Below, piece by piece: positions 1 to 36,853 of a stretch of DNA of 64,000 nucleotides. This stretch comes from Auanema rhodensis (lineage: Eukaryota; Animalia; Nematoda): contig OZ059897.1 of the NCBI GenBank assembly GCA_964057225.1, positions 11,346,001-11,410,000 on the forward strand, given 5' to 3'. Positions within the stretch are counted from its first letter, which is position 1; every line of letters starts with the position of its first letter. A model generated the notes under the pieces. That model was not told the DNA's origin and did not search any database. It saw nothing but the letters and a program-made list of their open reading frames with translations. A program made the translations under genes and the position numbers.

Positions 1-86
1 AACACGACCTGTGTTAATCATGATTCAAATTCGAGATAACATTTTTCAACAGGATTTTTCGGACTATAGCGATCTATAAATTAACA
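1..86 (-). repeat. 3' LTR (first 86 bp only)
   Basis: Identical to 10363-10448; begins TGTTAA on the minus strand immediately after the PPT. Confidence 0.85.
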
Positions 87-100
87 ATCCTCCCTTTCTG
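87..100 (-). other. Polypurine tract
   Basis: Minus strand CAGAAAGGGAGGAT, directly followed by TGTTAA. Confidence 0.8.
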
Positions 101-855
101 GTGAGGTTTCCCGTGTAATTTTTTTCATGCGTACTGATTATAAATTTAGGATGTTAGAAGCAAAATTTGTCTGAACGAAATCGTAACGCAAAATAAAATA
201 GTCCTGATCGCAAAACAAACTTCATCCACGAAATATAAAGATATAACCGAAGTTATTCTTTCCTTGAAGCCAAAATTAATCCTTAAAAAGGAGAAGGCGT
301 GGGAAATACAAAATAACAATTACTTTAGGTGAATTTGTTCACTAATTCAGCCTAAAGCCCTCATCAAGCTTCAAGGTTGGGTAACAGAGCATTTCAGATG
401 TTATAAGCAAGGATACGAAATTTAAAGGTTCAGACGAAAAACTTTTTGTGAACAAACGGGAAAATAATAATCTCGAAACGTATAATCCTTCTTTAAAAAA
501 AAAAGGATTCCTTGCCTCTGTTCCCATTTAACGTTGTTGGCCCCTCCGTATTGTGTTAAGACATAGAGTAGATGGTATGAGAAAAAGAGAGATGAAAGAG
601 ATTTGAAAATAAATTAACAACACAAACATTAGAGAGAAGGAAGAAAAAAAAATTGTGATAAGTTCGAGGTGGAACCTCCACGTTCCGTTATGCTCCCGCG
701 TCGATCTTACAGACCAATGGAGTCTACAAGATGAGCGTGGTAGTATTCCAGATGTAGCGGTTAAACATGGAGCATAAGGATAAACATAAGACTCGAGAAA
801 GATTGGTTTATTATATCTACGTGATTACAATAAGATACATATAACTAAGTAAAGG

Positions 856-3800
856 TTAAACTAATAGAGAACAGAGAGAGAACGACCGACCATCCATGAT
901 CGTCCCTGAGGCAAAGCTGAAGTGTTGTAATATGGAAAAGGGCGGGTCGTCTTCTCTCAGTCTTGCATTCTCTGACTCTAACCCGCCTGCTACAGCTTCG
1001 TCATATGAATGTAATGCATTGATCTTATGTGCGATTCCGTCATCTGTTTCTCGATTAAATAATTTGAGATTGTCCTTGTGAACGTCTTGGATCTTTCCGA
1101 AAAGGTTTTTGATTTGAACCATGTTTCCCTTCACATTAATAACTTCAAATGGTCCATCATAAGCTTTCCGAAGCTTTTGTCCTGGCTTGTGCATTTTCAC
1201 AGCTAACATAACGCAGTCTCCTTCTTGTATATCTCTTTCGTGAGTGCGTAATCGAGCATCATGTTTCTTTTTTGCTAATTCTTGATGCTTTTCCAAATTT
1301 TCTTGAATGATTGTTTTCTGTTTGCTTCGGATTTTCTCAATATTTTCAATCTCCTTTGAAATTTCCTTTGGTTCAGTTGTTTCGGGGTATAAATCTTTAT
1401 CCAATCTCAAACGGCTTTCTTTCCCGAATAGTACAACGTATGGTGATATTCCTGTGGTTGCATGCGTTGTGGTGTTCAATGCAAAGGTAATTTTTGGCAA
1501 AAACATGTCCCAATCAGTGACATCTTCGTTGAGATAATGTGTGAGTCCTTCTTCTAACGTTCTATGAAGTCTTTCTACTTGTCCATTGGAATTCTTCTGA
1601 TGTGGGAGTGTTGATTCATGTTTGATACCGAGTTTTTCGCACATGTCTTCATATTTCCTTGATAGGAAGTTGGAACCGCGGTCTGTTATTAAGCGGTTCG
1701 GTGGTCCATAGACATATACAAAGTTTCTGAGGAATCTATCAATGACAACTTCACTAACAATTGTTGGTATGGCGATAGTTGTAGCCCATTTGGAGAAAGA
1801 GTCTTGTATTGTGAGGACATAGCTGTTGTTCCTTTTTGATGTTGGGAATGGTCCCATGATATCCATATGTATTCTCTCAAATGGTTTTGTTGGTATGTTA
1901 AATTGACCCATTGGTTGTACGGTCATAGCATGAGGATCTTTCTTTCGTTGTGCACATTTGATGCACTGTTTTACGTATTTTGCTATGTCGTTCTGCATGT
2001 TAGTCCAGGAAAATCTTCGTAATATGGCTTCTTTTGTTTTGTTGATTCCTTGATGCGCCCCGATTGTTGGGTCTTCATGAAATTCTTCAATGATTTTGTT
2101 AATTATATCACTATCCGATGGCAATATTAACGCTGGATGAGGTCTTTTGACGCTTGGTTTTGTGTAGAGTAAGTTGTTTATAACACAATAACGATCATTT
2201 TGAATCATATTTTTCTTCGTTCTGTATTCAATCTCAGCTATTGTTCTCTTGATCCAAGGAGTATTTTGTTGGATTGAGCTGAATTCTGGTAACTTCACAA
2301 CATTTACTTGTTGTGTCTCAATTTTCTCTTTCGAATTCGTCTTTTGTTTCTTGTTCGACCTCTTTGGATCGTTAGCTTCATCTCCAATGTATCTAGAGAG
2401 TGCGTCACAGACTTTGTTTAATCTGCCTTCTCGATATTTGATCTCAATATCGTATTCCTGTATGACCAATTGGAACTTTGCTAGTCTTCCAAATAGGTCT
2501 CTTCTAGTTAGTAAGCTTGTCAATGGGCGATGATCGGTGATGCAAATTGAATGTGATCCAAGTATGTATGTTCGAAACTGTGCTAGAGCGTAAACTAAGC
2601 CTAAGGCTTCTATCTCTATGGGAGCATAGTTACGTTCTGCTTTTACTAATTTCCTACTTGCGAAAGCAATTGGATGTAAGTTCTTGAATGGTTCGTTTGG
2701 ATCTTCGGGCTGCAGTAATACTGCGCCTATGGCGATGTTGCTGCCATCACTTTCAATGATGAAAGTTCGGTCTGATCGTGGTGGTTTCAATACCGGTGCT
2801 TCGATTAGTCGTTCCTTTAGCTTATCTAGTGAACGTTGACATTCGCTAGTCCAATTGAAGTCTGCGTCTAGCTTAGTAAGGTCATACAGCGGACTTGCTA
2901 TATGTGCAAAATCTTTAATAAATTTTCTAAAGAATCCGACCATTCCTAAGAATGCTCTTACTCCTGTGGGTGTTTGAGGAGCAGGGTAATCGCGGATGGC
3001 GGAAACTTTCTGTTGATCGGGCTTAACTCCGTCTCTTCCGACAATGAGTCCGAGAAATTTCACTTCTGGTCTTGCAAATGAACATTTCTTGAGTTTAATC
3101 TTAAATCCTAGTCTTTCTACAGCGAGTAATACTTCTTTGATGTCTTCGAGGTGTTGTTCTGCGCTGTCTGATATGACTAGTAAATCGTCCAAATAGACAA
3201 ATAATCGGCATTTACATTTACTTTGGAGATATCTCACGGCTGTTTGAAAGGTATGTGGCGCACCACATAATCCCATAGGCCCACTATTGGTGGTAAAGGA
3301 TGTGAGTGGTCTATCCTTCTTCGATAATGGTATTTGGAAAAAGCCAGAAACAAGATCAAAATTAGAAAAGTATTGTGATCCAGCCGCTAAGTCAATGATA
3401 TCAGAGATGTTAGGAATCACATATGTTTGTTTTCTTGTAACGTTATTTAAGGCTCGGAAATCCGTAACGAAACGGAATGTTTCGTCTTTTTTCTTAACGA
3501 GAACGACAGGGCTGTTGAACAAAGATGTCGATCGTTCTATTATCCCTTGCTCGAGCATTTCTTGGACTTGTCTTTCTACCTCTTCCTGTTTCCCGAGAGG
3601 TATACGTGAAATTCGTGGCTTTGGCATATCCATATCCGTTCGTAGTGGTATCTTGTGTTCTACTGGTCCTTTGAACAATCCTATCTTTTTATCTTCATTG
3701 AGGAATGCCTTCTTACGTTGACGAATGATGTTTCGTAGTTCGTCTTTTTGTCGTTGCGTAAGATCAGCCTCTTTTAGGTCAAGTTCTTTCATGAAATCAC

Positions 3801-3915
3801 CAGGGAAGTGAGGTAATTTGCCTTCCCAGTCTGCTTCTGGTGGAATATAGTCGTACTGTTGTTCTGTTGAGAAGATTTCATAGTCCGGTATAGATCCTAT
3901 TTCGGCTTCTGCGTG
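856..3915 (-). pseudogene. pol: Pol: reverse transcriptase, RNase H, integrase
   Basis: RT motifs SPVVLVKKKD, DFRALN, FDLVSGFFQI, YLDD. RNase H ESDGS and NYAPIEIEAL. Integrase H..H..CxxC, DIMGP/TDRGSNF/VER and GPF motif. The frame is open upstream of the 3792 ATG to about 3936 but is out of frame with the protease ORF. RT lacks the usual LYEFxxM segment (TTNSG-PMGL). Confidence 0.92.
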
Positions 3916-5549
3916 CCGGCCGGTATTTCTATGAATTCTTTAGAATTGTTCCGGAATTGGATATTGATGGAGTTAACATCGCGAAATGCTGTGTCGTATC
4001 GAGGTGAGAGAGGTGTATTGTCGTTTGGTTTAATCATAGCGATTAAGTCTTCTCCGATTGGGTTCTCTAATTGGACTTGGAAATTAAAAACTTGTCGAGG
4101 AAGTAGACTCCGCGGCTCCAAGGTTATCAAATTAACAGTTTTTGATATCCTGTTAATATCCCCGTTAATTCCGCTAGCCAAAGGTACTACATGATTTCCA
4201 ATTTCCAGTGTTCTTTTGTATGGTCTTAGTTTCATGCCAATGTTTTGACAGTCAAGTGTTTTCATGAAATCTAATCCAACCAACGCTGGCGATGGACAGT
4301 CTTTGTCGTCTGATATGAAGAATGTATGGTCGATTTCGTAACCGGCTATTTCGACGGTTAAGTCGATAGTACCAATGAATACAAATTCTGATCCGTTCGC
4401 TGTTGTTGCTCTTAATGTATTCTTCTTAACAAAGTCATTCAAAGCTAAGTAGTGTAGTGTCGATATTCTTATGTAACTGACGGACGAACCTGAGTCCCAT
4501 AAAGTTAGGATCACTCTATCGTTAACAGTCATCCATAGAAGTGGTAGCGCTTGATCTTTCTTTTTGGAAATCGAGCAAACTAATGGTAGTGCGATTGGTA
4601 TGAATGTGAGCATTGATGGATAGTATTGTTTCATTATGTGTCTTGGAATCGGTTGGTCCGGATGACTAACTAATTCCAAAGTTTCTTCGTATGTTGGTAG
4701 ATCACTGTCGTGATCTTTGAGTGCAATATGCATAACTGGTATGCCTACTGGTTTGAAGAAATAGATCTTTACAATGAAACCTATCACAAAGAGTATGATG
4801 GTAAATAATGTAATTGCACCGATCGTTATTAGTGTTCGCTCAATCGTTCCTGCAATTGTATCGATGAATGACTTCCATGTGCTCTTGGTGAATTCTTGAG
4901 CTTTCGATATGTAGTCGCTACTTTTCTTTAGTACACTGAATGTAGCTGATATCTTTGGATCATTGTGAATTGTGTGAAGAACGTGATTCTGACGAATCGA
5001 TGCTAAACTCGCACCGTAAGCTATGGCTGTGGTCATTAAGTATACACGAGACGATAAATTAGTGTATAAGTGAGCTCCGGTGAATTTTAATGGTGTTATT
5101 TTTTCGTGATGAAGTCCGTCCCACATTGATACAAGATTGACGTCTGCAGTCCCATTAATTCCTTTCCATTCACCTTCGCTAGACCAGATATCTGTTGGTA
5201 CGTGATCACAGCTTATTTCTTTACCATGAGGTAAAAGATCCTTGGATCCGGGTGCTGCAAACAGTAACTGTCCGTCTTGTGTCCAGACTGGGGTTTCGAG
5301 ATAGCATGTGCCATTTACGGTGTGATTGTGATAAATGGTTTTCTCTAGCACTGTAGGGCATACATGTATATGCAAAATTTCATTGCCTACAAACCGTGCG
5401 GCTATATCTTCTCTTCCCAGTATTGTTCGCATTGCGATTGTTGGTTCAATTTGTAGAATTGATTTCCATAATTCCAGATACCGATTTTGTATCTCGCAAA
5501 TCGATTCGTATGATTCTTCAAAATGTTTCTGCAATTCCTCTTGGATCAT
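3897..5549 (-). CDS. Env C-terminal half (gB/class III-like ectodomain, TM anchor, tail) fused to aspartic protease and a possible dUTPase-like linker
   Basis: ICEIQN..LWKSILQIEPT..ILGREDIAARFVG..HVC and GTCYLETPV resemble the gB central helix and crown region. TM TLITIGAITLFTIILFVIGFIV. Protease LWDSGSSVSYI and ALVGLDFM. Confidence 0.82.
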   Translation of the reverse strand: MIQEELQKHFEESYESICEIQNRYLELWKSILQIEPTIAMRTILGREDIAARFVGNEILHIHVCPTVLEKTIYHNHTVNGTCYLETPVWTQDGQLLFAAPGSKDLLPHGKEISCDHVPTDIWSSEGEWKGINGTADVNLVSMWDGLHHEKITPLKFTGAHLYTNLSSRVYLMTTAIAYGASLASIRQNHVLHTIHNDPKISATFSVLKKSSDYISKAQEFTKSTWKSFIDTIAGTIERTLITIGAITLFTIILFVIGFIVKIYFFKPVGIPVMHIALKDHDSDLPTYEETLELVSHPDQPIPRHIMKQYYPSMLTFIPIALPLVCSISKKKDQALPLLWMTVNDRVILTLWDSGSSVSYIRISTLHYLALNDFVKKNTLRATTANGSEFVFIGTIDLTVEIAGYEIDHTFFISDDKDCPSPALVGLDFMKTLDCQNIGMKLRPYKRTLEIGNHVVPLASGINGDINRISKTVNLITLEPRSLLPRQVFNFQVQLENPIGEDLIAMIKPNDNTPLSPRYDTAFRDVNSINIQFRNNSKEFIEIPAGTQKPK

Positions 5550-8500
5550 TGTAGTAGCATACTTACGTTCGATATATTTTGACGAAACTCTTGTACCGAG
5601 TCAATTTTCGTTGCTATGTATCTCGCATTTGCTTCCACTAAATTTGAGGTTTCTACTGATGGTGTTGAGGAAGCTCGGTTTTTTCGAATCAATGTTGGAG
5701 AGGCTTTGGTTGTCTCTTGTATTTTTGGAATCTGTGCGTCTTTGTATATGGCATAGCTTCTTGTTGTTGTTGGCGAACGAGCGGTTGATGTTGTTGTGCG
5801 TGCTGTTGTCGCAGCGGTCGTGTGAGGCGCCGTTGTTGATGGCTGTTGCCTCCATGATGGTGCTCTTGTGGTGGTTGTTGCATTTGTGTGAGGATTGTTC
5901 GTTATTTGCTGCTGTATTGTGGTAACTGATTGGATTGTTCCCTTCTGTTCGATCAAAGGTTGGACTGGTGTCACAACCGCGCCGCTAGCCGCGCCGCCTG
6001 CCGCGACGCTGGATGTCCGCGTTGCGATTTGCCGAAAATTTGTTTCATTTTCCTCTGCCATTAAGATTTGAAGTTGTTCTTGTGTTATCCTACTCGATGT
6101 ATAAGGTGTTTTTACATTATTGAGCAGGGGTAAAAATATTTCCAATAATAATTTCTTTGAAAGATTGCTGGGCTTGATCAGCTTAGGGTGTGGACCGATC
6201 GGTATTCCATAATTATTCTTCCTGTCATAAAATAGTTTATCTGTATTTGGCATGAATTGTCGTGATGCTGGCAATTTTATAAATTTTCTGTCATCAATAA
6301 ATGCTGCAGTTTTATTCCATCGTACTGTTGTGAGGGTTTTTAGTTCTCTTAGTAAATTGATCGTTGCCTTAATGAATTCGCTTTTCTTCTCTTCCTCGTC
6401 AGTTAGTATACGTTTCCTTATTGGTGGCATTTGTATGAACGTTTGTAGGACTTCTTGTCGTGATGGAACTGTCAATCCTTCTTCAATTATAACTGGTGTA
6501 TTGGTTAAATTGAGAGCTATGTTTTCAATTCGTTCGCGATATGAACCTTCTTTCTTCCTTATGATTTCATCGAATTCGATTACTGTCAAACGATCTGATA
6601 TTTGTTCGAGAAGCTGTTCAGATGTTAAGTATGATATTGCTGCCTTTGTAGTAATGGCTAATTCTCTTTGTGCTATATAATATAGCAGAGCTTCTTCTTT
6701 ATCACTGAAATCGTATTGCTTGAGAAAATGTCGAACAGAATGTTCATTTATTTGAATTCTGAAGAAAAATTCGAATTTTTCTTTATGTGATGTTATCCAT
6801 GCCTTTAGAGAGTATGTTGGATCTACTAAACGTCTTCCTTTAATTATAGGAATAATTGAAGTAATACCGGGATTACTCATTAATGGTCTTAGGAAAGTAT
6901 ATGGACAGACGTGAAGCAATACTGTTTCATAATCTTCAACTTCGTTGATCCGATCTTGATCCAGTGGGAAAGAACATCCTTCGGTGACTGCACGTTTTGG
7001 TCTTTTAAACGGCAGCTTTTTGAACTCTCTTTCAATAAGGGTGGTTATATTGTTGTCGTTTGGAAATTTAGGAAGAATGATATAATTTCCTGATGTCGTA
7101 TGGAACGCTGGCTGCCTGAAGCAAGAAGAAATAGGTTTCGGAGTTGGTTTGCTCAAAAGAATAAGTGCCGATTGTGTACTAGGGATTAAAATAGTATCTT
7201 GACTAATGATAGCGTCATATGTATGCATATCGATGTAATTACAACGTGGAGCAGTGGTTTGTGGGTCCCATATTATTATTGATGTACTTGATTCACAATT
7301 ACCATGATGTGCATTGCATCCTTCCGTGTTTAATATTAAGTTTGACAATATTGTATCGTCAGGCATACGGGTCATGACTCCGCGCTCTAATATTAGACGT
7401 GACCGCTCCTCGCACGCGTCGCGGTTGAACGCGCGCGCTGAGTCATAGGAGGGCTCCGGAGTTGCTTGGGTGATACTATCAATGCGTTGCAGTTCTATGT
7501 TATTCCACTTGCGATCGCGGATTGCCTGTCTGCACTCGCGCTCTCCTATAGGCTGTATTCTATTTATTGTTCTGTTCGTATCGCGGAGGAATAGCAGGTC
7601 TCGTACGCATAACTTGTGTACTTCCTCTGAACAACGCCACGCATCCCATTCGTGTGCTGTGTGATTTCTTGTGTACAGATGAACTTCTGTACGTAGCACA
7701 TGGTTTTTCTCTGTTAATCTGCATTTTCTGATTGTTGGTGGCATAAGTAATGCGCCTCCTGTTGCTCTTGTACAGATTTGATATGTAGATGCACAGGGCA
7801 AGAATATTGCTGCTGTTATTGCCATGATAACTGTGAGCGTCAAAGGCGAAAGGGTGACAGAGTTTATTCTTGTTGAGCTTCTATCTCTTCCTCTTGAGTT
7901 GTCTCTTGGATTTTTGAATTGAACTCTTCTTTGTCCGTTGTTGTTATTGAATCTACCTCGTTGGTTGTTATGACGAAAATTATAATTTCTTTGATGCCAA
8001 TCAGAACTCGATTGCCTATTATCTTGTTCGTTATAATTTGTACGGCGATTATTATTAGCGAAAGAACCGTAACGGTTTCGATTATTATTGAAATTAGAAA
8101 AGTTTTTATTTTTTTGATAATTTTGATAATTTTGATTATTTTGATAATTTTGATTGTTTCTTATCATTTGGTTATCGCGTTGATAATTGCGATTAAATGT
8201 TTGGCTATCTCGTCTCTCATCATTACGCGCAAAGGGTGCTAGTGCTTTGTTCACAGCGTTGACCAACATCGATTGCGTGTCTGTTGTTTGGTTCACTATC
8301 GATTCCTCCCAGCGAGCGGCTTCAATCGCTTCTGTGAAGGATTTTGGCTTTGCTCGAATTACAGCTGGTTTTAGAGTATTTTTAAGTCCTCTGAGGAATG
8401 TTGATCTCAGTATTTGATCTTTATGTGGGTCATCAGATGCAAATGCACTCAATGCCATTGTTCTTAATGCTTGGGCGTATGCATCAATTGTCAATTCCCC

Positions 8501-9532
8501 TTGCGTGGTGTTCTGAAGGTTAATAAGTGCAGGGTCTTGGTTATATTCAGGGCAGAGCTTCGATGTTAGTGCTCTAATCAGATCATTCCACGAACCAGTT
8601 GTTTTAAGTTCAGGAACTTGTCTGTAAGCTTCTTCTGCTGCTTCATTTTTGAGAAGCAAAGGAAGAAGTGCTAACCTTTCAGGGATAACAAGGCCAATGG
8701 CATTAGCAAACAAGTTGAATTTACCCGTAAAATCACGGAAGTTACGACTGCCGTCGTAAGTTGGACAGTAAGGCGAAAGTAAGGCTTGCGCGATTGTTGT
8801 TTTCCCTGCCCCAGGTAGTGAGGAAACAGCTTCCGTCATGATGTTATTCGTACGGGTAGATGGTATTTTGATCGTTCTACCTGTTATTGGTGGGGTCTCC
8901 AAAATAGGGGTTGTTTGCGTGGATGGAATAGGTCTATTGGGTGCCTTAGGAAGTGAGTCTGTTGTTGTTAAGATGGGAGTAGAAGTTTGATGAATACTGG
9001 TATTTGGTGCAGGTGGTTGAATTGGTGAGATATTAATGTTAGGGACTGATGAATATCTGCTTTTGCGCTTGGTGTTGAAAGTTTTATCTTTAGGCGAAAG
9101 GTTAAAAAGATCAGTAACAATGTTTCTAAGAGAACTAAGCCCACCCGCGCTAGAAGTTTTTGAAAGTAAAGGGGAATCGGTTGGTTCGGTTAGTGAGAGA
9201 GAGAGAGAAGCGTCGCTGATGTTTTGATTTTTCTTATTTTTATTAGAATTAGAGGAGCGTACCTTTTTAGGAGTGATCGGTGTTTGTTCCTCCACAATGA
9301 TTGATAGTTCTTCTTCTATAGTAGGTACGTAGTCCGGGTCGCCTAGTTGTTCAGTAGGTGAGACAGAATCAGTAGTAGGAATAAGGAAATTATCCGGCTT
9401 CTTGTCGACTTTCTGCTCCTCTTCTAATATAGCGACGTCTTGAGCTCGAGCTCGACTTCTGGTAAAGGGAGCTGAGTCTTGGGAATCGAAATGCGTACTT
9501 ATAGGTACGGCTGAATGGAATCTCTTAGCCAC
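5546..9532 (-). CDS. Gag fused in frame to Env N-terminal half
   Basis: Gag-like core (PTYDGS, LLPLLLK, FLRGL, PKSFTEAIEAA), then an N/R/Q-rich tract. A signal-like segment (LTLTVIMAITAAIFLPCAS), a Cys-rich ectodomain, an RPKR furin-type site and a Thr-rich mucin-like tract follow. Confidence 0.85.
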   Translation of the reverse strand: MAKRFHSAVPISTHFDSQDSAPFTRSRARAQDVAILEEEQKVDKKPDNFLIPTTDSVSPTEQLGDPDYVPTIEEELSIIVEEQTPITPKKVRSSNSNKNKKNQNISDASLSLSLTEPTDSPLLSKTSSAGGLSSLRNIVTDLFNLSPKDKTFNTKRKSRYSSVPNINISPIQPPAPNTSIHQTSTPILTTTDSLPKAPNRPIPSTQTTPILETPPITGRTIKIPSTRTNNIMTEAVSSLPGAGKTTIAQALLSPYCPTYDGSRNFRDFTGKFNLFANAIGLVIPERLALLPLLLKNEAAEEAYRQVPELKTTGSWNDLIRALTSKLCPEYNQDPALINLQNTTQGELTIDAYAQALRTMALSAFASDDPHKDQILRSTFLRGLKNTLKPAVIRAKPKSFTEAIEAARWEESIVNQTTDTQSMLVNAVNKALAPFARNDERRDSQTFNRNYQRDNQMIRNNQNYQNNQNYQNYQKNKNFSNFNNNRNRYGSFANNNRRTNYNEQDNRQSSSDWHQRNYNFRHNNQRGRFNNNNGQRRVQFKNPRDNSRGRDRSSTRINSVTLSPLTLTVIMAITAAIFLPCASTYQICTRATGGALLMPPTIRKCRLTEKNHVLRTEVHLYTRNHTAHEWDAWRCSEEVHKLCVRDLLFLRDTNRTINRIQPIGERECRQAIRDRKWNNIELQRIDSITQATPEPSYDSARAFNRDACEERSRLILERGVMTRMPDDTILSNLILNTEGCNAHHGNCESSTSIIIWDPQTTAPRCNYIDMHTYDAIISQDTILIPSTQSALILLSKPTPKPISSCFRQPAFHTTSGNYIILPKFPNDNNITTLIEREFKKLPFKRPKRAVTEGCSFPLDQDRINEVEDYETVLLHVCPYTFLRPLMSNPGITSIIPIIKGRRLVDPTYSLKAWITSHKEKFEFFFRIQINEHSVRHFLKQYDFSDKEEALLYYIAQRELAITTKAAISYLTSEQLLEQISDRLTVIEFDEIIRKKEGSYRERIENIALNLTNTPVIIEEGLTVPSRQEVLQTFIQMPPIRKRILTDEEEKKSEFIKATINLLRELKTLTTVRWNKTAAFIDDRKFIKLPASRQFMPNTDKLFYDRKNNYGIPIGPHPKLIKPSNLSKKLLLEIFLPLLNNVKTPYTSSRITQEQLQILMAEENETNFRQIATRTSSVAAGGAASGAVVTPVQPLIEQKGTIQSVTTIQQQITNNPHTNATTTTRAPSWRQQPSTTAPHTTAATTARTTTSTARSPTTTRSYAIYKDAQIPKIQETTKASPTLIRKNRASSTPSVETSNLVEANARYIATKIDSVQEFRQNISNVSMLLQ

Positions 9533-9793: not shown

Positions 9794-9808
9794 CATCTGG
9801 GGTGACCA
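9794..9808 (-). other. Putative primer-binding site
   Basis: Minus strand TGGTCACCCCAGATG, 3 nt after the LTR end ...TAACA. The TGG start is typical; the cognate tRNA was not determined. Confidence 0.7.
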
Positions 9809-9811
9809 AGC

Positions 9812-10448
9812 TGTTATTTTACAAAACGTTTAGTGTAATTCGTAATATTCGTTCAATTACAGCACATTTTACTGATTTGTATGCAACCATTTTCCTCATG
9901 CTGACTAAACTTATGTTTTGTTACACTAGTTTCTCGACCATGTGGTGTGTCATCTTGCAACAAAACTTATGGTGTAATTCGTAACATGCTTTTGATAAAA
10001 GAGCAGTTTAACAATAAATGTGCACCAATTTCTCTTTTGTGACCAAAAATAATTTTTGTTTCTTTACAATCTGGTTTTCAAATACATTTGGTGTAGCTCG
10101 CATGTTTCGTTGTAACAAAAGTCATGGGATTCGTAATATTAGTTTTACAAAAGAGCGTTTTGCAATGATGAATGTAGATATTTCGTGATCAGAAATCGAA
10201 TTTTGAAATAAAAGCAGAGTTAAATGGCTAAATATTACAAGAACTAGTATTAAAGTTGGAATAAGGTTCAATGCGTGAGTCTTATGCTTCTGAACAACAA
10301 TAACGGTATGAGGAAGGTGACATTCAGTAAGGGGAGAAAATCCAAACCGATATGCTTTAGCCAACACGACCTGTGTTAATCATGATTCAAATTCGAGATA
10401 ACATTTTTCAACAGGATTTTTCGGACTATAGCGATCTATAAATTAACA
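9812..10448 (-). repeat. 5' LTR, 637 bp, TGTTA...TAACA
   Basis: Terminal inverted pentamers; bounded by the PBS on one side and a PPT copy on the other; shares sequence with 1-86. Confidence 0.85.
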
Positions 10449-11385
10449 ATCCTCCCTTTCTGGTGAGGTTTCCCGTGTAATTTTTTTCATGCGTACTGAT
10501 TATAAATTTAGGATGTTAGAAGCAAAATTTGTCTGAACGAAATCGTAACGCAAAATAAAATAGTCCTGATCGCAAAACAAACTTCATCCACGAAATATAA
10601 AGATATAACCGAAGTTATTCTTTCCTTGAAGCCAAAATTAATCCTTAAAAAGGAGAAGGCGTGGGAAATACAAAATAACAATTACTTTAGGTGAATTTGT
10701 TCACTAATTCAGCCTAAAGCCCTCATCAAGCTTCAAGGTTGGGTAACAGAGCATTTCAGATGTTATAAGCAAGGATACGAAATTTAAAGGTTCAGACGAA
10801 AAACTTTTTGTGAACAAACGGGAAAATAATAATCTCGAAACGTATAATCCTTCTTTAAAAAAAAAGGATTACTTGCCTCTGTTCCCATTTAACGTTGTTG
10901 GCCCCTCCGTATTGTGTTAAGACATAGAGTAGATGGTATGAGAAAAAGAGAGATGAAAGAGATTTGAAAATAAATTAACAACACAAACATTAGAGAGAAG
11001 GAAGAAAAAAAAATTGTGATAAGTTCGAGGTGGAACCTCCACGTTCCGTTATGCTCCCGCGTCGATCTTACAGACCAATGGAGTCTACAAGATGAGCGTG
11101 GTAGTATTCCAGATGTAGCGGTTAAACATGGAGCATAAGGATAAACATAAGACTCGAGAAAGATTGGTTTATTATATCTACGTGATTACAATAAGATACA
11201 TATAACTAAGTAAAGGTTAAACTAATAGAGAACAGAGAGAGAACGACCGACCATCCATGATCGTCCCTGAGGCAAAGCTGAAGTGTTGTAATATGGAAAA
11301 GGGCGGGTCGTCTTCTCTCAGTCTCGCATTCTCTGACTCTAACCCGCCTGCTACAGCTTCGTCATATGAATGTAATGCATTGATC
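10449..11385 (-). repeat. Truncated second copy of the element's internal 3' end (PPT, 3' UTR, last codons of integrase)
   Basis: Near-identical to 87-1024 (I saw two substitutions and one A-run indel). Confidence 0.93.
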
Positions 11386-12157
11386 ATTCGAATGGAACGA
11401 TTGAAAATTATTATAAACAGTTATTACCTTGGTATATGCACTGCTGATGAACTTTATCGCTAAGATTAGGCAATTTTGATGCAGGGATCTCATTGTTAAT
11501 GATTGTTTTAATGATATTTTAATCGTGTGAAAGATGTCTATGTATTTTTGGAAATGTGGAGGTAGATTTTATGTTCTTAATCGGAAGAGATTTCTGGCGT
11601 TTCCAACACTGAGAATCCTTTAAAAATATTCAATATACTTTTTAATCTTCAATTTGTTCATGTTTTGATATTTGTAATGGATTTTATAAATTTCAGAGAC
11701 ATCATGACTGCGAATTGTTAAGCTTTTGTGAGTAAGTTCAAAAGGGCTTGACAAGCTTCCGCATTGAAACAAATGACCCAAATTGAACAAGCAGTTGATC
11801 AAGCCTTGAACCACCTAATGCCACTGATAAAAGCTAAATTCCTGGTCACCTACCATCAATTTGATGAAATTTATTGCCAATTCAATGCAAATTTCTCTCG
11901 CTACATGGAAAAAAATTTCGAATACATTGAAATAGCCGCAGAGTTTTATTTCTCAAACTTCTTTGCTGATAACGCTGAATGCCCAGCCCTCGACATCAGA
12001 TGTGAAAGGAATGGATCAGAGGAAGGTGGAATCCTGGTAAGTTTTTGGTAAAATTTGATATAAAATATAATTGTACAATATTGTCTATAGGGCGGGCTCA
12101 TTTGTCAAGTATTGGGGAATGAAATTCTGATTGGAAAGTACTACGTTGAAGAACATA

Positions 12158-13568
12158 CAGTCCTGTGCGATGAAGGTTGCACACCCACTAGAATCCCCCC
12201 GTATCTTTTGAATCAAACTTCAGAAAATTCGAAAAAAAATATTTTGGGTGTTAAAAACCACTACAAAATCAATAAAAAAATTTTAAAAATTAATTAAACA
12301 AGTTTATTAATATTTAGTTGGATATCCAAAATTATCAATCACTGCTTGAAGTCTTCTGGGCATCGATTCCACGAGTTTCTTCAGCAGATCCGGTGATATC
12401 TCCCTCCAGAGTGTACGGAGGACTCTGAACTTCTCATACTTATCAGAACATGGGTATTTTGAAGATCTTCGTCCAAATTCTCTCCAAAGATGCTCGATGG
12501 GGTTGAGATCCGGAGACTGGCTGGGCCAATTTAGAACGTTCAGCCGGTTCTCTTCCATGAACTTCGTTGTCGATCGAGCCGTGTGCTTGGGATCGTTATC
12601 TTGCTGCAGGATAAATCGATTCCTCGTTCCGAACTTGTTGATGGCGAAAGGCATGAAGGCTTCTTGAAGAATGTGCTGGTAGTCTTCTGCACACATTCTG
12701 CCTTCTACGCGGAATAGTGGCCCAATTTCGGAGTAACAGAAACAACCCCAAACCATGACGTTTCCGCCACCATGCTTGACCGTAGGTCGCATGTATTTGG
12801 GGTTGTACCGCTGATTGGGTGGCCTTCTGACGAATTCAGGTCCGTCATTTCCAAATAAGCAAAATTTGCTTTCATCAGTGAAAATGACGGAAGACCAATC
12901 TTCAGTGGTCCAGTTCAGATGCTCTTGTGCAAACTGAACACGCTTGAGCCTGTTGTTGACCGAAATCAACGGCTTTCGCACAGGAACACGGGCCCGTAAG
13001 TTTCTGGCTAACAGCCTTCTTCTTACGTTGTAGGGATGAAGCATAATGTTAAACATACGTTGAAGATGTTGGCTCAACTGCATGGATGTGATGTCTGGAT
13101 GCTTCTGGACCAGCCTAACCAACAGATTGTCTGGATTGGTCGTGGTTTTTCTTTCTCGTCCTCTCATATCCACTTTGTATGGTTTCTGGGCATCTTTCCA
13201 TACTCTTTGAATGGTACTGGGAGGCATCGACAGCATTTCGCCTATTTTCCGAACGCTTGAGCCCTTCTCCTTCATATTGATTATGATGGATCTTACTTCA
13301 GGAGAAGTTTTCTTGCCTCTAGCCATCTTAAATTTATAAATTTTAGTTTTTTATTATGCAAAACAAGCAAAAATATGAATATTTTAAATATTAAACTTAA
13401 ATTATTTTTAAAAAATTCAGTTTACATCATTTTAACTTCAATTTTAATCGATATGTTGATACTTCAGCCTGAAACCCAAATTAATTTTTTCGAATTTTTT
13501 TTTGTAGTTTGAGGTGGTTTTCTGGGGCCTCTAACATCGGGGTGTGCAACCTTCATCGCACAGGACTG
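12158..13568 (-). mobile_element. Tc1-family DNA transposon (family A), 1411 bp
   Basis: 29-bp perfect TIRs CAGTCCTGTGCGATGAAGGTTGCACACCC; TA on both sides; empty site visible at 23613-23614. Confidence 0.97.
12307..13326 (-). CDS. Tc1 DD34E transposase, intact and intronless
   Basis: FTDESKF, QQDNDPKH and SPDLNPIEHLW, with 34 residues between D and E; N-terminal HTH region. Confidence 0.97.
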   Translation of the reverse strand: MARGKKTSPEVRSIIINMKEKGSSVRKIGEMLSMPPSTIQRVWKDAQKPYKVDMRGRERKTTTNPDNLLVRLVQKHPDITSMQLSQHLQRMFNIMLHPYNVRRRLLARNLRARVPVRKPLISVNNRLKRVQFAQEHLNWTTEDWSSVIFTDESKFCLFGNDGPEFVRRPPNQRYNPKYMRPTVKHGGGNVMVWGCFCYSEIGPLFRVEGRMCAEDYQHILQEAFMPFAINKFGTRNRFILQQDNDPKHTARSTTKFMEENRLNVLNWPSQSPDLNPIEHLWREFGRRSSKYPCSDKYEKFRVLRTLWREISPDLLKKLVESMPRRLQAVIDNFGYPTKY

Positions 13569-14971
13569 TATAGGTTTAGCAAATTGACAACAAGCAGATA
13601 TTCGTAAAATATTTGTTTATAAGTTGTTTGAGTTGATCGGAGTCGGACCTAAGGTTCATTTTATTCCACACAAACACTATAACACTACAAACACGGGAAA
13701 CTGAGCATTGCTGATCTTCAAGTATGATTGTAAGCATTTTATATTATGATCTTTGTATTTTAGATAAAGAGTTGTGTCGATCCTGAAATGGCACACAAAT
13801 ATTTGAACGGGTACAGAAGCTGGAAGACGAGCAAAGAGCTACGGATTCAAGTAGCAAAGAAGTGCATTAAATTGTGGAATCTACCCCATGATTTCAACGA
13901 AGCTAATGAAACGATCTCCAAACAAAAAGAGCTGTTCAAGAAGCATTCTATCATCTGTAAACCAAGTCGAAACTTTGAGAGATATTCTGTAGAAATTAAA
14001 AACGATCTTAATAGTCTGATAGAAAGTTTGAAATATAACAGGTTTCATTTTTTACACTGTATTTGTTACGAAAAATATGTGTGTTATAATGATTACAAAC
14101 ACTAAAGATGCCTAAGTAATATGAATTTGAATATAAATACAAAGCGTCTTTTACATTATACTTTGACCTGATAATGTAAACATAGTAGAGTATGAAATTA
14201 AAATGTTTTTGAGATTGAAAATTATTATAAACAGTTATAACATTGGTATATGCACTGCTGATGCACTTTATTGCTAAGAATAGGTAATTTTGATGCAGGG
14301 ATCTCATTGTTAATGATTTTTTTAATGATACTTTAATCGTGTGAAAGATGTCTATGTATTTTTGGAAATGTGGAGGAAGATTTTATGTTTTTAATCGGAA
14401 GAGATTTCTGGCGTTTCCAACACTGAGAATCCTTTGAAAATATTCAATATACTTTTTAATCTTCAATTTGTTCATATTTTGATATTTGTAATGGATTTTA
14501 TAAATTTCAGAGACATCATGACTGCGAATTGTTAAGCTTTTGTGAGTAAGTTCAAAAGGGCTTGACAAGCTTCCGCATTGAAACAAATGACCCAAATTGA
14601 ACAAGCAGTTGATCAAGCCTTGAACCACCTAATGCCACTGATGAAAGCTAAATTCCTGGTCACCTACCATCAATTTGATGAAATTTATTGCCAATTCAAT
14701 GCAAATTTCTCTCGCTACATGGAAAAAAATTTCGAATACATTGAAATAGCCGCAGAGTTTTATTTCTCAAACTTCTTTGCTGATAACGCTGAATGCCCAG
14801 CCCTCGACATCAGATGTGAAAGGAATGGATCAGAGGAAGGTGGAATCCTGGTAAGTTTTTGGTAAAATTTGATATAAAATATAATTGTACAATATTGTCT
14901 ATAGGGCGGGCTCATTTGTCAAGTATTGGGGAATGAAATTCTGATTGGAAAGTACTACGTTGAAGAACATA

Positions 14972-16382
14972 CAGTCCTGTGCGATGAAGGTTGCACACCC
15001 ACTAGAATCCCCCCGTATCTTTTGAATCAAACTTCAGAAAATTCGAAAAAAAATATTTTGGGTGTTAAAAACCACTACAAAATCAATAAAAAAATTTTAA
15101 AAATTAATTAAACAAGTTTATTAATATTTAGTTGGATATCCAAAATTATCAATCACTGCTTGAAGTCTTCTGGGCATCGATTCCACGAGTTTCTTCAGCA
15201 GATCCGGTGATATCTCCCTCCAGAGTGTACGGAGGACTCTGAACTTCTCATACTTATCAGAACATGGGTATTTTGAAGATCTTCGTCCAAATTCTCTCCA
15301 AAGATGCTCGATGGGGTTGAGATCCGGAGACTGGCTGGGCCAATTTAGAACGTTCAGCCGGTTCTCTTCCATGAACTTCGTTGTCGATCGAGCCGTGTGC
15401 TTGGGATCGTTATCTTGCTGCAGGATAAATCGATTCCTCGTTCCGAACTTGTTGATGGCGAAAGGCATGAAGGCTTCTTGAAGAATGTGCTGGTAGTCTT
15501 CTGCACACATTCTGCCTTCTACGCGGAATAGTGGCCCAATTTCGGAGTAACAGAAACAACCCCAAACCATGACGTTTCCGCCACCATGCTTGACCGTAGG
15601 TCGCATGTATTTGGGGTTGTACCGCTGATTGGGTGGCCTTCTGACGAATTCAGGTCCGTCATTTCCAAATAAGCAAAATTTGCTTTCATCAGTGAAAATG
15701 ACGGAAGACCAATCTTCAGTGGTCCAGTTCAGATGCTCTTGTGCAAACTGAACACGCTTGAGCCTGTTGTTGACCGAAATCAACGGCTTTCGCACAGGAA
15801 CACGGGCCCGTAAGTTTCTGGCTAACAGCCTTCTTCTTACGTTGTAGGGATGAAGCATAATGTTAAACATACGTTGAAGATGTTGGCTCAACTGCATGGA
15901 TGTGATGTCTGGATGCTTCTGGACCAGCCTAACCAACAGATTGTCTGGATTGGTCGTGGTTTTTCTTTCTCGTCCTCTCATATCCACTTTGTATGGTTTC
16001 TGGGCATCTTTCCATACTCTTTGAATGGTACTGGGAGGCATCGACAGCATTTCGCCTATTTTCCGAACGCTTGAGCCCTTCTCCTTCATATTGATTATGA
16101 TGGATCTTACTTCAGGAGAAGTTTTCTTGCCTCTAGCCATCTTAAATTTATAAATTTTAGTTTTTTATTATGCAAAACAAGCAAAAATATGAATATTTTA
16201 AATATTAAACTTAAATTATTTTTAAAAAATTCAGTTTACATCATTTTAACTTCAATTTTAATCGATATGTTGATACTTCAGCCTGAAACCCAAATTAATT
16301 TTTTCGAATTTTTTTTTGTAGTTTGAGGTGGTTTTCTGGGGCCTCTAACATCGGGGTGTGCAACCTTCATCGCACAGGACTG
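14972..16382 (-). mobile_element. Tc1 family A, copy 2
   Basis: Same TIRs and TA flanks. Confidence 0.97.
15121..16140 (-). CDS. Tc1 DD34E transposase
   Basis: 339 aa, identical to copy 1. Confidence 0.97.
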   Translation of the reverse strand: MARGKKTSPEVRSIIINMKEKGSSVRKIGEMLSMPPSTIQRVWKDAQKPYKVDMRGRERKTTTNPDNLLVRLVQKHPDITSMQLSQHLQRMFNIMLHPYNVRRRLLARNLRARVPVRKPLISVNNRLKRVQFAQEHLNWTTEDWSSVIFTDESKFCLFGNDGPEFVRRPPNQRYNPKYMRPTVKHGGGNVMVWGCFCYSEIGPLFRVEGRMCAEDYQHILQEAFMPFAINKFGTRNRFILQQDNDPKHTARSTTKFMEENRLNVLNWPSQSPDLNPIEHLWREFGRRSSKYPCSDKYEKFRVLRTLWREISPDLLKKLVESMPRRLQAVIDNFGYPTKY

Positions 16383-17785
16383 TATAGGTTTAGCAAATTG
16401 ACAACAAGCAGATATTCGTAAAATATTTGTTTATAAGTTGTTTGAGTTGATCGGAGTCGGACCTAAGGTTCATTTTATTCCACACAAACACTATAACACT
16501 ACAAACACGGGAAACTGAGCATTGCTGATCTTCAAGTATGATTGTAAGCATTTTATATTATGATCTTTGTATTTTAGATAAAGAGTTGTGTCGATCCTGA
16601 AATGGCACACAAATATTTGAACGGGTACAGAAGCTGGAAGACGAGCAAAGAGCTACGGATTCAAGTAGCAAAGAAGTGCATTAAATTGTGGAATCTACCC
16701 CATGATTTCAACGAAGCTAATGAAACGATCTCCAAACAAAAAGAGCTGTTCAAGAAGCATTCTATCATCTGTAAACCAAGTCGAAACTTTGAGAGATATT
16801 CTGTAGAAATTAAAAACGATCTTAATAGTCTGATAGAAAGTTTGAAATATAACAGGTTTCATTTTTTACACTGTATTTGTTACGAAAAATATGTGTGTTA
16901 TAATGATTACAAACACTAAAGATGCCTAAGTAATATGAATTTGAATATAAATACAAAGCGTCTTTTACATTATACTTTGACCTGATAATGTAAACATAGT
17001 AGAGTATGAAATTAAAATGTTTTTGAGATTGAAAATTATTATAAACAGTTATAACATTGGTATATGCACTGCTGATGCACTTTATTGCTAAGAATAGGTA
17101 ATTTTGATGCAGGGATCTCATTGTTAATGATTTTTTTAATGATACTTTAATCGTGTGAAAGATGTCTATGTATTTTTGGAAATGTGGAGGAAGATTTTAT
17201 GTTTTTAATCGGAAGAGATTTCTGGCGTTTCCAACACTGAGAATCCTTTGAAAATATTCAATATACTTTTTAATCTTCAATTTGTTCATATTTTGATATT
17301 TGTAATGGATTTTATAAATTTCAGAGACATCATGACTGCGAATTGTTAAGCTTTTGTGAGTAAGTTCAAAAGGGCTTGACAAGCTTCCGCATTGAAACAA
17401 ATGACCCAAATTGAACAAGCAGTTGATCAAGCCTTGAACCACCTAATGCCACTGATGAAAGCTAAATTCCTGGTCACCTACCATCAATTTGATGAAATTT
17501 ATTGCCAATTCAATGCAAATTTCTCTCGCTACATGGAAAAAAATTTCGAATACATTGAAATAGCCGCAGAGTTTTATTTCTCAAACTTCTTTGCTGATAA
17601 CGCTGAATGCCCAGCCCTCGACATCAGATGTGAAAGGAATGGATCAGAGGAAGGTGGAATCCTGGTAAGTTTTTGGTAAAATTTGATATAAAATATAATT
17701 GTACAATATTGTCTATAGGGCGGGCTCATTTGTCAAGTATTGGGGAATGAAATTCTGATTGGAAAGTACTACGTTGAAGAACATA

Positions 17786-19196
17786 CAGTCCTGTGCGATG
17801 AAGGTTGCACACCCACTAGAATCCCCCCGTATCTTTTGAATCAAACTTCAGAAAATTCGAAAAAAAATATTTTGGGTGTTAAAAACCACTACAAAATCAA
17901 TAAAAAAATTTTAAAAATTAATTAAACAAGTTTATTAATATTTAGTTGGATATCCAAAATTATCAATCACTGCTTGAAGTCTTCTGGGCATCGATTCCAC
18001 GAGTTTCTTCAGCAGATCCGGTGATATCTCCCTCCAGAGTGTACGGAGGACTCTGAACTTCTCATACTTATCAGAACATGGGTATTTTGAAGATCTTCGT
18101 CCAAATTCTCTCCAAAGATGCTCGATGGGGTTGAGATCCGGAGACTGGCTGGGCCAATTTAGAACGTTCAGCCGGTTCTCTTCCATGAACTTCGTTGTCG
18201 ATCGAGCCGTGTGCTTGGGATCGTTATCTTGCTGCAGGATAAATCGATTCCTCGTTCCGAACTTGTTGATGGCGAAAGGCATGAAGGCTTCTTGAAGAAT
18301 GTGCTGGTAGTCTTCTGCACACATTCTGCCTTCTACGCGGAATAGTGGCCCAATTTCGGAGTAACAGAAACAACCCCAAACCATGACGTTTCCGCCACCA
18401 TGCTTGACCGTAGGTCGCATGTATTTGGGGTTGTACCGCTGATTGGGTGGCCTTCTGACGAATTCAGGTCCGTCATTTCCAAATAAGCAAAATTTGCTTT
18501 CATCAGTGAAAATGACGGAAGACCAATCTTCAGTGGTCCAGTTCAGATGCTCTTGTGCAAACTGAACACGCTTGAGCCTGTTGTTGACCGAAATCAACGG
18601 CTTTCGCACAGGAACACGGGCCCGTAAGTTTCTGGCTAACAGCCTTCTTCTTACGTTGGAGGGATGAAGCATAATGTTAAACATACGTTGAAGATGTTGG
18701 CTCAACTGCATGGATGTGATGTCTGGATGCTTCTGGACCAGCCTAACCAACAGATTGTCTGGATTGGTCGTGGTTTTTCTTTCTCGTCCTCTCATATCCA
18801 CTTTGTATGGTTTCTGGGCATCTTTCCATACTCTTTGAATGGTACTGGGAGGCATCGACAGCATTTCGCCTATTTTCCGAACGCTTGAGCCCTTCTCCTT
18901 CATATTGATTATGATGGATCTTACTTCAGGAGAAGTTTTCTTGCCTCTAGCCATCTTAAATTTATAAATTTTAGTTTTTTATTATGCAAAACAAGCAAAA
19001 ATATGAATATTTTAAATATTAAACTTAAATTATTTTTAAAAAATTCAGTTTACATCATTTTAACTTCAATTTTAATCGATATGTTGATACTTCAGCCTGA
19101 AACCCAAATTAATTTTTTCGAATTTTTTTTTGTAGTTTGAGGTGGTTTTCTGGGGCCTCTAACATCGGGGTGTGCAACCTTCATCGCACAGGACTG
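17786..19196 (-). mobile_element. Tc1 family A, copy 3
   Basis: Same TIRs and TA flanks. Confidence 0.97.
17935..18954 (-). CDS. Tc1 DD34E transposase
   Basis: 339 aa; HPSNV variant. Confidence 0.97.
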   Translation of the reverse strand: MARGKKTSPEVRSIIINMKEKGSSVRKIGEMLSMPPSTIQRVWKDAQKPYKVDMRGRERKTTTNPDNLLVRLVQKHPDITSMQLSQHLQRMFNIMLHPSNVRRRLLARNLRARVPVRKPLISVNNRLKRVQFAQEHLNWTTEDWSSVIFTDESKFCLFGNDGPEFVRRPPNQRYNPKYMRPTVKHGGGNVMVWGCFCYSEIGPLFRVEGRMCAEDYQHILQEAFMPFAINKFGTRNRFILQQDNDPKHTARSTTKFMEENRLNVLNWPSQSPDLNPIEHLWREFGRRSSKYPCSDKYEKFRVLRTLWREISPDLLKKLVESMPRRLQAVIDNFGYPTKY

Positions 19197-20599
19197 TATA
19201 GGTTTAGCAAATTGACAACAAGCAGATATTCGTAAAATATTTGTTTATAAGTTGTTTGAGTTGATCGGAGTCGGACCTAAGGTTCATTTTATTCCACACA
19301 AACACTATAACACTACAAACACGGGAAACTGAGCATTGCTGATCTTCAAGTATGATTGTAAGCATTTTATATTATGATCTTTGTATTTTAGATAAAGAGT
19401 TGTGTCGATCCTGAAATGGCACACAAATATTTGAACGGGTACAGAAGCTGGAAGACGAGCAAAGAGCTACGGATTCAAGTAGCAAAGAAGTGCATTAAAT
19501 TGTGGAATCTACCCCATGATTTCAACGAAGCTAATGAAACGATCTCCAAACAAAAAGAGCTGTTCAAGAAGCATTCTATCATCTGTAAACCAAGTCGAAA
19601 CTTTGAGAGATATTCTGTAGAAATTAAAAACGATCTTAATAGTCTGATAGAAAGTTTGAAATATAACAGGTTTCATTTTTTACACTGTATTTGTTACGAA
19701 AAATATGTGTGTTATAATGATTACAAACACTAAAGATGCCTAAGTAATATGAATTTGAATATAAATACAAAGCGTCTTTTACATTATACTTTGACCTGAT
19801 AATGTAAACATAGTAGAGTATGAAATTAAAATGTTTTTGAGATTGAAAATTATTATAAACAGTTATAACATTGGTATATGCACTGCTGATGCACTTTATT
19901 GCTAAGAATAGGTAATTTTGATGCAGGGATCTCATTGTTAATGATTTTTTTAATGATACTTTAATCGTGTGAAAGATGTCTATGTATTTTTGGAAATGTG
20001 GAGGAAGATTTTATGTTTTTAATCGGAAGAGATTTCTGGCGTTTCCAACACTGAGAATCCTTTGAAAATATTCAATATACTTTTTAATCTTCAATTTGTT
20101 CATATTTTGATATTTGTAATGGATTTTATAAATTTCAGAGACATCATGACTGCGAATTGTTAAGCTTTTGTGAGTAAGTTCAAAAGGGCTTGACAAGCTT
20201 CCGCATTGAAACAAATGACCCAAATTGAACAAGCAGTTGATCAAGCCTTGAACCACCTAATGCCACTGATGAAAGCTAAATTCCTGGTCACCTACCATCA
20301 ATTTGATGAAATTTATTGCCAATTCAATGCAAATTTCTCTCGCTACATGGAAAAAAATTTCGAATACATTGAAATAGCCGCAGAGTTTTATTTCTCAAAC
20401 TTCTTTGCTGATAACGCTGAATGCCCAGCCCTCGACATCAGATGTGAAAGGAATGGATCAGAGGAAGGTGGAATCCTGGTAAGTTTTTGGTAAAATTTGA
20501 TATAAAATATAATTGTACAATATTGTCTATAGGGCGGGCTCATTTGTCAAGTATTGGGGAATGAAATTCTGATTGGAAAGTACTACGTTGAAGAACATA

Positions 20600-22010
20600 C
20601 AGTCCTGTGCGATGAAGGTTGCACACCCACTAGAATCCCCCCGTATCTTTTGAATCAAACTTCAGAAAATTCGAAAAAAAATATTTTGGGTGTTAAAAAC
20701 CACTACAAAATCAATAAAAAAATTTTAAAAATTAATTAAACAAGTTTATTAATATTTAGTTGGATATCCAAAATTATCAATCACTGCTTGAAGTCTTCTG
20801 GGCATCGATTCCACGAGTTTCTTCAGCAGATCCGGTGATATCTCCCTCCAGAGTGTACGGAGGACTCTGAACTTCTCATACTTATCAGAACATGGGTATT
20901 TTGAAGATCTTCGTCCAAATTCTCTCCAAAGATGCTCGATGGGGTTGAGATCCGGAGACTGGCTGGGCCAATTTAGAACGTTCAGCCGGTTCTCTTCCAT
21001 GAACTTCGTTGTCGATCGAGCCGTGTGCTTGGGATCGTTATCTTGCTGCAGGATAAATCGATTCCTCGTTCCGAACTTGTTGATGGCGAAAGGCATGAAG
21101 GCTTCTTGAAGAATGTGCTGGTAGTCTTCTGCACACATTCTGCCTTCTACGCGGAATAGTGGCCCAATTTCGGAGTAACAGAAACAACCCCAAACCATGA
21201 CGTTTCCGCCACCATGCTTGACCGTAGGTCGCATGTATTTGGGGTTGTACCGCTGATTGGGTGGCCTTCTGACGAATTCAGGTCCGTCATTTCCAAATAA
21301 GCAAAATTTGCTTTCATCAGTGAAAATGACGGAAGACCAATCTTCAGTGGTCCAGTTCAGATGCTCTTGTGCAAACTGAACACGCTTGAGCCTGTTGTTG
21401 ACCGAAATCAACGGCTTTCGCACAGGAACACGGGCCCGTAAGTTTCTGGCTAACAGCCTTCTTCTTACGTTGGAGGGATGAAGCATAATGTTAAACATAC
21501 GTTGAAGATGTTGGCTCAACTGCATGGATGTGATGTCTGGATGCTTCTGGACCAGCCTAACCAACAGATTGTCTGGATTGGTCGTGGTTTTTCTTTCTCG
21601 TCCTCTCATATCCACTTTGTATGGTTTCTGGGCATCTTTCCATACTCTTTGAATGGTACTGGGAGGCATCGACAGCATTTCGCCTATTTTCCGAACGCTT
21701 GAGCCCTTCTCCTTCATATTGATTATGATGGATCTTACTTCAGGAGAAGTTTTCTTGCCTCTAGCCATCTTAAATTTATAAATTTTAGTTTTTTATTATG
21801 CAAAACAAGCAAAAATATGAATATTTTAAATATTAAACTTAAATTATTTTTAAAAAATTCAGTTTACATCATTTTAACTTCAATTTTAATCGATATGTTG
21901 ATACTTCAGCCTGAAACCCAAATTAATTTTTTCGAATTTTTTTTTGTAGTTTGAGGTGGTTTTCTGGGGCCTCTAACATCGGGGTGTGCAACCTTCATCG
22001 CACAGGACTG
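20600..22010 (-). mobile_element. Tc1 family A, copy 4
   Basis: Same TIRs and TA flanks. Confidence 0.97.
20749..21768 (-). CDS. Tc1 DD34E transposase
   Basis: 339 aa; HPSNV variant. Confidence 0.97.
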   Translation of the reverse strand: MARGKKTSPEVRSIIINMKEKGSSVRKIGEMLSMPPSTIQRVWKDAQKPYKVDMRGRERKTTTNPDNLLVRLVQKHPDITSMQLSQHLQRMFNIMLHPSNVRRRLLARNLRARVPVRKPLISVNNRLKRVQFAQEHLNWTTEDWSSVIFTDESKFCLFGNDGPEFVRRPPNQRYNPKYMRPTVKHGGGNVMVWGCFCYSEIGPLFRVEGRMCAEDYQHILQEAFMPFAINKFGTRNRFILQQDNDPKHTARSTTKFMEENRLNVLNWPSQSPDLNPIEHLWREFGRRSSKYPCSDKYEKFRVLRTLWREISPDLLKKLVESMPRRLQAVIDNFGYPTKY

Positions 22011-33720: not shown

Positions 33721-33845
33721 TCAGCTCCGCCAACAAGTCGACTCTACGATCCAGTTCTGTCAACAAGTCTACTCTCCGATCCAGCTCCGCCACCAAGTTT
33801 TCTCGCCGATCCACCTCTGCCAACAAGTCGACGATCTGATCCAAC
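33721..33845. repeat. 30-bp minisatellite, about 4 copies
   Basis: CAGCTCCGCCAACAAGTCGACTCTACGATC-like units. Confidence 0.75.
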
Positions 33846-33905
33846 GTCAACAGACTGCTGCAAGTTCGTTGTTGTTTAGGAAAAGCCTCCAATTGGGCTA
33901 CAAAC

Positions 33906-34740: not shown

Positions 34741-34795
34741 TTGATCAAATAAATCATTTATTATTAATACAATTGTTTACAACAACAGTGAAAAA

Positions 34796-36536: not shown

Positions 36537-36841
36537 GATTTAAAACCAAAATAGGCAATACCACATGTAACTATGGTTTTCAATTGTTTGTGTGAAAGCG
36601 TTGCCAATAATGATTTAGCCTTTTCCGGTGTGCGTATCAAAGCTATTTGACGTAATAATGAAGATATGGGCAAGAGGGTTTTATATTCCTTGTTAGTTAA
36701 AAGAAAATTATTATTTTTCACAATATTAAATACAATTTCAACAATAATTTCAATTTGTGCAAAAGAAAATGAGGAAACAGAACAAGGAGTTTCGGCGCAA
36801 GAAGACAAAAAGTTGAAATTTGACAAAATACCACCACTCAT
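36533..36841 (-). CDS. Maverick conserved small hypothetical protein (102 aa)
   Basis: IVEIVFNIVKNN..LRQIA; stop overlaps the next start (ATGA). Confidence 0.6.
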   Translation of the reverse strand: MSGGILSNFNFLSSCAETPCSVSSFSFAQIEIIVEIVFNIVKNNNFLLTNKEYKTLLPISSLLRQIALIRTPEKAKSLLATLSHKQLKTIVTCGIAYFGFKS

Positions 36842-36853
36842 TAAACAAGCACT

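Follow-up and report, generated by a model that had tools for sequence, protein, structure and literature searches.

We analyzed a 64,000-nucleotide stretch of Auanema rhodensis DNA (contig OZ059897.1, positions 11,346,001 to 11,410,000; hereafter the window), and this revealed a Ty3/gypsy retroelement on the minus strand whose envelope protein (Env), of the gB type known from herpes simplex virus (HSV), lies between Gag and the protease and carries an insert directly after a predicted furin site. The element is probably a recently inserted, defective copy, likely from a nematode, that follows the published Gag-Env-protease-Pol order, bears in addition a helical domain and a mucin-like stalk behind the furin site, and would in its intact form be made as a membrane-threading polyprotein. 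Its source lineage is likely the rhabditid nematode Gag-Env-Pol elements. An earlier sequence-only reading of this locus had implied that the layout was novel, but a GAG-ENV-POL arrangement with an Env of HSV/gB type only has already been published for elements of Nematoda, Bryozoa and Platyhelminthes (Chary and Hayashi, eLife 2026, PMC13524379). The feature that looks new, a domain of ~317 aa after the furin site, had not been picked out.

The list of open reading frames (ORFs) contained three stop-free minus-strand frames, at 9595-5546 (1349 aa), 5600-3897 (567 aa) and 3939-856 (1027 aa). In Pfam searches the first frame carried Gag; the second, a Monjiviricetes fusion protein, a gB ectodomain and an aspartic protease; and the third, reverse transcriptase (RT), RNase H and integrase. 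The order protease-RT-RNase H-integrase and the Ty3-type Gag are those of Ty3/gypsy elements, and the best solved match of the RT-RNase H part was Ty3 Gag-Pol (E 4.7e-103). Flanking long terminal repeats (LTRs) were also found, the outer end of one, and with it the far side of any target-site duplication, lying beyond the window edge. The 5′ LTR-like repeat (9812..11386, minus strand, as are all element features below) starts with TG at 11386, and its putative inner end is the CA at 9813-9812; the 3′ LTR-like repeat (1..1024) is truncated by the edge. Aligned over 1023 bases, positions 1-1024 and 10363-11385 differ by 2 mismatches and 1 gap, and so close a direct repeat is consistent with a recent insertion.

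The most informative relative was P0001 (CAI4220937.1), an unnamed and unannotated protein of 1666 aa from Auanema sp. JU1783, which holds in one frame the Gag C-terminus, signal, Env, insert, transmembrane segment (TM), protease and RT start. It matched the window in three frames with 46%, 48% and 72% identity (48% overall), and the Env core, insert and RT start were 59%, 39% and 72% identical, respectively. Seven further fragments (P0002-P0008) bring the close homologues to 8, all of them from Auanema sp. JU1783. A gB-like Env between Gag and protease, as the sequence-only reading had proposed, was observed not only in the window but also in P0001 and three further Auanema fragments.

From signal to TM the Env comprises ~1,020 codons, close to the glycoprotein of about 1,000 aa first suggested. 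The parts named for it and its neighbors (Gag, signal-like segment, Cys-rich ectodomain, RPKR, S/T-rich tract, TM, protease and RT-RNase H-integrase) were all recovered in place by Pfam, hydropathy and composition. The internal signal-like hydrophobic segment (7787..7843; Kyte-Doolittle 2.05) has an equivalent at residues 160-176 of P0001. It is followed by the Env N-half (6992..7783), the putative domain I-II region, which contains 10 Cys, is 59% identical to P0001 and ends in the furin-like RPKR (7003-6992); alone, this half had no Pfam match. Eight Cys at aa 655-825, including C-x7-C and C-x6-C, agreed by eye, over 15 rows, with the pattern of the Nematoda_C1 group. The Env C-half (4830..5600), the domain III-V region, matched PF24664 (E 1.4e-12; 46.9 bits versus a cut-off of 27) and PF00606 (gB ectodomain; E 9.2e-8), and herpesvirus gB came top in a PDB sequence search (E 0.002). 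An Atlas feature match (0.84) to a PF24664 cluster serves as a lead only. The PF24664 score above cut-off, together with the gB matches, assigns the Env to the HSV/gB type and suggests a class III fusogen, the sequence match being confined to the C-half.

The TM anchor (4773..4829; Kyte-Doolittle 2.66) corresponds to residues 1170-1186 of P0001. Behind it, the cytoplasmic tail (4566..4700) carries the motifs LPTY and YPSML as well as a further hydrophobic stretch, a weaker one; these align with PPSY, YPTML and a hydrophobic stretch in P0001. The two motifs, located within 4608-4700 in the window and in the Env tail of both sequences, are presumably PPxY-like and YPxxL-like late domains; no late-domain-like motif was found in the Gag-containing frame. 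Of the Cys in the two Env pieces, P0001 kept 12/12 and 4/4 (16/16 over ectodomain and insert), as against 1/3 after the TM; of the 11 sequons in these pieces it kept 6.

The insert of ~460 residues begins directly after the furin-like site, which we take to sit in a loop equivalent to that of gB and Monjiviricetes G. It comprises a predicted helical domain of ~317 aa (6041..6991) and a mucin-like S/T-rich tract (5606..6040; 31% S+T). The structure model of the domain reached a pLDDT of 74 and a pTM of 0.75, and searches of Pfam, PDB and BFVD returned no match and no clear fold match. Apart from P0001 (39% identical), 7 further homologues were found, and all were envelope genes of Auanema sp. 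JU1783. In P0001, P0004, P0005 and P0006 the insert occupies the same place, with 22-39% identity to that of the window, indicating that it is old and shared; a basic R-x-K/R-R directly precedes it in all three relatives covering the junction (P0001, P0004 and P0006). The tract corresponding to the stalk is S/T-rich in P0001 and P0005, and P-rich with just 13% S+T in P0006. This conserved insert, whose modeled fold is unmatched, is what seems to be novel in the element.

As for the role of the head, attachment or receptor binding is our most likely guess, at somewhat under an even chance; capping or shielding of the prefusion trimer is less likely, and other roles, or none, less likely again. 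It is conceivable, though we hold it only tentatively, that in a rhabditid Gag-Env-Pol clade the class III fusogen has gained an attachment protein of its own, a helical domain of ~320 residues with a new fold that is set on a mucin stalk and exposed by furin and that does within the same chain the work for which herpesviruses rely on gD and gH/gL, and that the Env tail with its budding motifs, instead of Gag, tows Pol into the particle.

The breaks, the homologies, the order of the domains and their conservation are observed; topology, cleavage, budding and function are all inferred, the first from the established behavior of signal and stop-transfer sequences. Intact relatives would likely produce one polyprotein from the element, in which Gag stays cytosolic while the internal hydrophobic segment sends Env into the lumen of the endoplasmic reticulum (ER). 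The N-flank of that segment is basic, with 8 K/R versus 2 acidic residues in the preceding 29 aa, and a signal so flanked would have the orientation required for a cytosolic Gag and a luminal Env. Signal peptidase cleavage would leave Gag membrane-anchored. Through the TM segment the chain would pass back into the cytosol, where protease and Pol would hang on the Env tail; this two-crossing topology fits the hydropathy. The element protease would then free both at recurring V/I-N-x-V/I/L-like junction motifs. Such motifs, with the pattern V/I-N(or C/S)-x-V/I/L, occur at four aligned junctions in both the window and P0001 (capsid end, before the signal, before the protease and after the protease), and a fifth lies at the RNase H-integrase boundary of the window; we regard them as candidate protease sites. 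The late-domain-like motifs of the tail may recruit the budding machinery, and cleavage by furin would free the insert to form, on its S/T-rich and presumably glycosylated stalk, an N-terminal head of the subunit that stays anchored in the membrane.

The layout might be real without the Env serving infectious extracellular particles, if the element instead buds into the ER, passes from soma to germline within one animal, or carries the Env as a slowly decaying passenger. A single ORF gives a one-to-one Gag:Env:Pol output, unlike that of retroviruses. The eLife discussion (PMC13524379) treats the way in which gB-type elements enter cells as unknown. At 48% overall identity the signal and the TM are retained together with the basic cleavage site, all 16 Cys of ectodomain and insert and 6 of 11 sequons, which argues against decay; conservation of this kind cannot separate spread within an animal from spread between animals. 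Overall, we consider this explanation unlikely.

The window copy itself does not encode a continuous gag-env-pro-pol ORF. The sequence-only reading had placed Env in frame both after Gag and before the protease, and this holds for each half separately: the N-half shares its frame with Gag, and the C-half with the protease, but from one half to the other the frame differs, with an overlap at 5546-5600 (frame change 1), and protease and RT likewise differ in frame, with an overlap at 3897-3939 (frame change 2, where the post-protease region gives way to RT). These changes could be programmed, by ribosomal frameshifting or by splicing, to fix the ratio of Gag, Env and Pol with no single polyprotein, in keeping with the three overlapping ORFs; frameshifting from gag to pol occurs in many LTR elements. 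Against this, break 1 falls within the ectodomain, and P0001 reads past both places in one frame, from the Gag C-terminus to the RT start. Sibling contigs point the same way. Of 14 listed public runs, 11 contained at least half of the sampled words, and 4, from 3 studies, were compared in detail. The contigs were ~99.5% identical to the window (19 differing letters in a 3916-base piece), and multi-base indels relative to it were found at break 2 in 4/4 runs, inside RT in 4/4, and at break 1 in 3/4, the fourth run having no listed piece across it. Since these differences are multi-base, unlike homopolymer slips, both frame changes are likely lesions of the window copy, and programmed frame changes, already largely refuted, appear very improbable. 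The NERVs of chromadorean nematodes, described by Sacco and colleagues, reportedly have an uninterrupted gag-env-pro-pol ORF and an RT related to metaviruses.

It is hardly credible that a single nesting event put the glycoprotein, or the insert that it contains, into an ordinary gypsy element: the insert does have a lower GC content than its flanks (0.347, with a third-position GC of 0.26, versus 0.40-0.43), as a captured piece might, but both Env and insert recur in relatives, the insert at one and the same place, and 36 nematode elements with a gB-type Env are listed in PMC13524379. A nested one-off origin, which the sequence-only reading had named as grounds for abandoning its claim, was refuted for Env and insert alike by the relatives found.

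Several observations weigh against the polyprotein reading or parts of it. P0001 is without the N-terminal half of Gag and ends early in RT, and a single frame through integrase was seen in no sequence examined. If the weaker hydrophobic stretch of the tail, which precedes the protease, crossed the membrane, Pol would end up in the lumen and the simple two-crossing model would no longer hold. The junction motif was defined after inspection and is weakly enriched (P 0.02-0.17 per ORF). The PF00606 match fell under its own cut-off, and a single-sequence structure model of the Env N-half reached a pLDDT of just 32; the predicted class III match accordingly stands at the level of sequence and not of structure. 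Finally, the insert is less conserved than the flanking Env (39% versus 59% identity to P0001).

The remaining parts of the element were as follows. An S/T/P-rich low-complexity region (8786..9532), without a Pfam match, forms the N-terminus. A start at 9532 had been proposed; the first Met of the Gag frame is aa 253 (8839), and with none among the first 252 residues that start is not established. The Gag capsid-like domain (8279..8644) matched PF03732 (E 2e-6; aa 318-405 of the 9595-5546 frame) and PF19259 (E 2.7e-4). In the nucleocapsid position, an N/Q/R-rich basic region (7862..8275; 38% N+Q, 19% K+R) has 0 Cys and no CCHC knuckle. The aspartic protease (4260..4532; WDSG at 4499) scored above cut-off with PF13975 and PF13650. 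RT and RNase H (2452..3498; YLDD at 3195) matched PF00078, PF17917 and PF17919, and the window RT has a short gap relative to its siblings that keeps the frame. The integrase (1025..2112), with zinc finger, core and SH3-like parts, matched PF17921 and PF00665.

At its 3′ end, the integrase frame leads without a break into the LTR-like repeat, at its second base (1024). No polypurine tract was seen before this position, at the point where the copy appears deleted, and in 2/4 runs the sibling contigs extend several hundred bases past 1024 with sequence absent from the window. Where it meets the repeat, this copy appears to have lost the integrase tail and any polypurine tract. A candidate tRNA primer site (9795..9808), proposed from sequence alone, has its TGG three bases past the CA; it had no counterpart among the primer sites in the accessible supplements of Chary and Hayashi (PMC13524379), and no tRNA genes were found within the 64-kb window. 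Three degenerate repeats, spaced by 139-152 bp, lie at 9838-10161 within the inferred 5′ LTR.

The surrounding DNA is rich in other mobile elements. Each of the tandem 2814-bp units at 11399-22122 (99% identical) contains 32-bp inverted arms and an ORF for a Tc1/Tc3-type transposase of 346 aa; the array starts 13 bases past the LTR-like repeat. Maverick/Polinton-like fragments, comprising protein-primed polymerase B pieces and an rve integrase with chromodomain, occur at 26642-28776, 53012-53818, 34799-36043 and 60098-61342, the last being a near-identical repeat copy. A 443-aa ORF without a Pfam match (41278-42606, plus strand), with shorter copies at 30067-31083 and 54925-55941 (both minus strand), is presumably a candidate Maverick major capsid protein. 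A second gypsy integrase fragment (46944-47708, plus strand) is 53% identical to that of the element over 143 aa, and a 4.9-kb direct duplication links 33775-38701 with 59036-64000 (98.8% identity) in a transposon-dense region.

Among known systems, the Nematoda_C1 group of PMC13524379 shares gene order, gB-type Env, signal and TM and, by eye, the eight-Cys pattern of domains I-II, with Clat_errantivirus_4 the closest. It differs in that the copy studied here is broken and that the accessible portions of the paper mention no insert or polyprotein for those elements; nor do they mention in-frame fusion. The 36 nematode elements listed there include none from Auanema, although ENV-POL matches are tabulated for two Auanema genomes; the paper also credits Sacco et al. 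2022 (J Gen Virol 103:1739). Auanema sp. JU1783 P0001 and fragments P0002-P0008 show the same order including the insert. Atlas virus (10.1101/2021.11.23.469668) is likewise a nematode LTR element with Env in one polyprotein, its Env being of class II, and Ascaris Tas is one with a gB-like Env. In these belpaoviruses Env comes last, 3′ of integrase, and the RT motif is YVDN, in contrast to the internal Env and YLDD of the window, which thus lacks both hallmarks of Belpaoviridae. Cer1 is described as having no true Env, and the only Env mentioned in the consulted passages of a C. elegans silencing paper is of the phlebovirus type.

Herpesvirus gB and the chuvirus-like Monjiviricetes G match the element in sequence at the central helix region. 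In contrast to both, the window fusogen lies inside a retroelement polyprotein, and ~460 additional residues follow its basic site. How gB-type retroelements enter cells without the herpesvirus partner proteins is the gap stated in PMC13524379, and the conserved head-on-stalk domain within the fusogen would be a concrete candidate for supplying the attachment that is missing. Pol packaging by a polyprotein that crosses the ER membrane twice is unaddressed in the accessible portions of that paper, and the anatomy described here yields testable predictions for both cleavage and budding.

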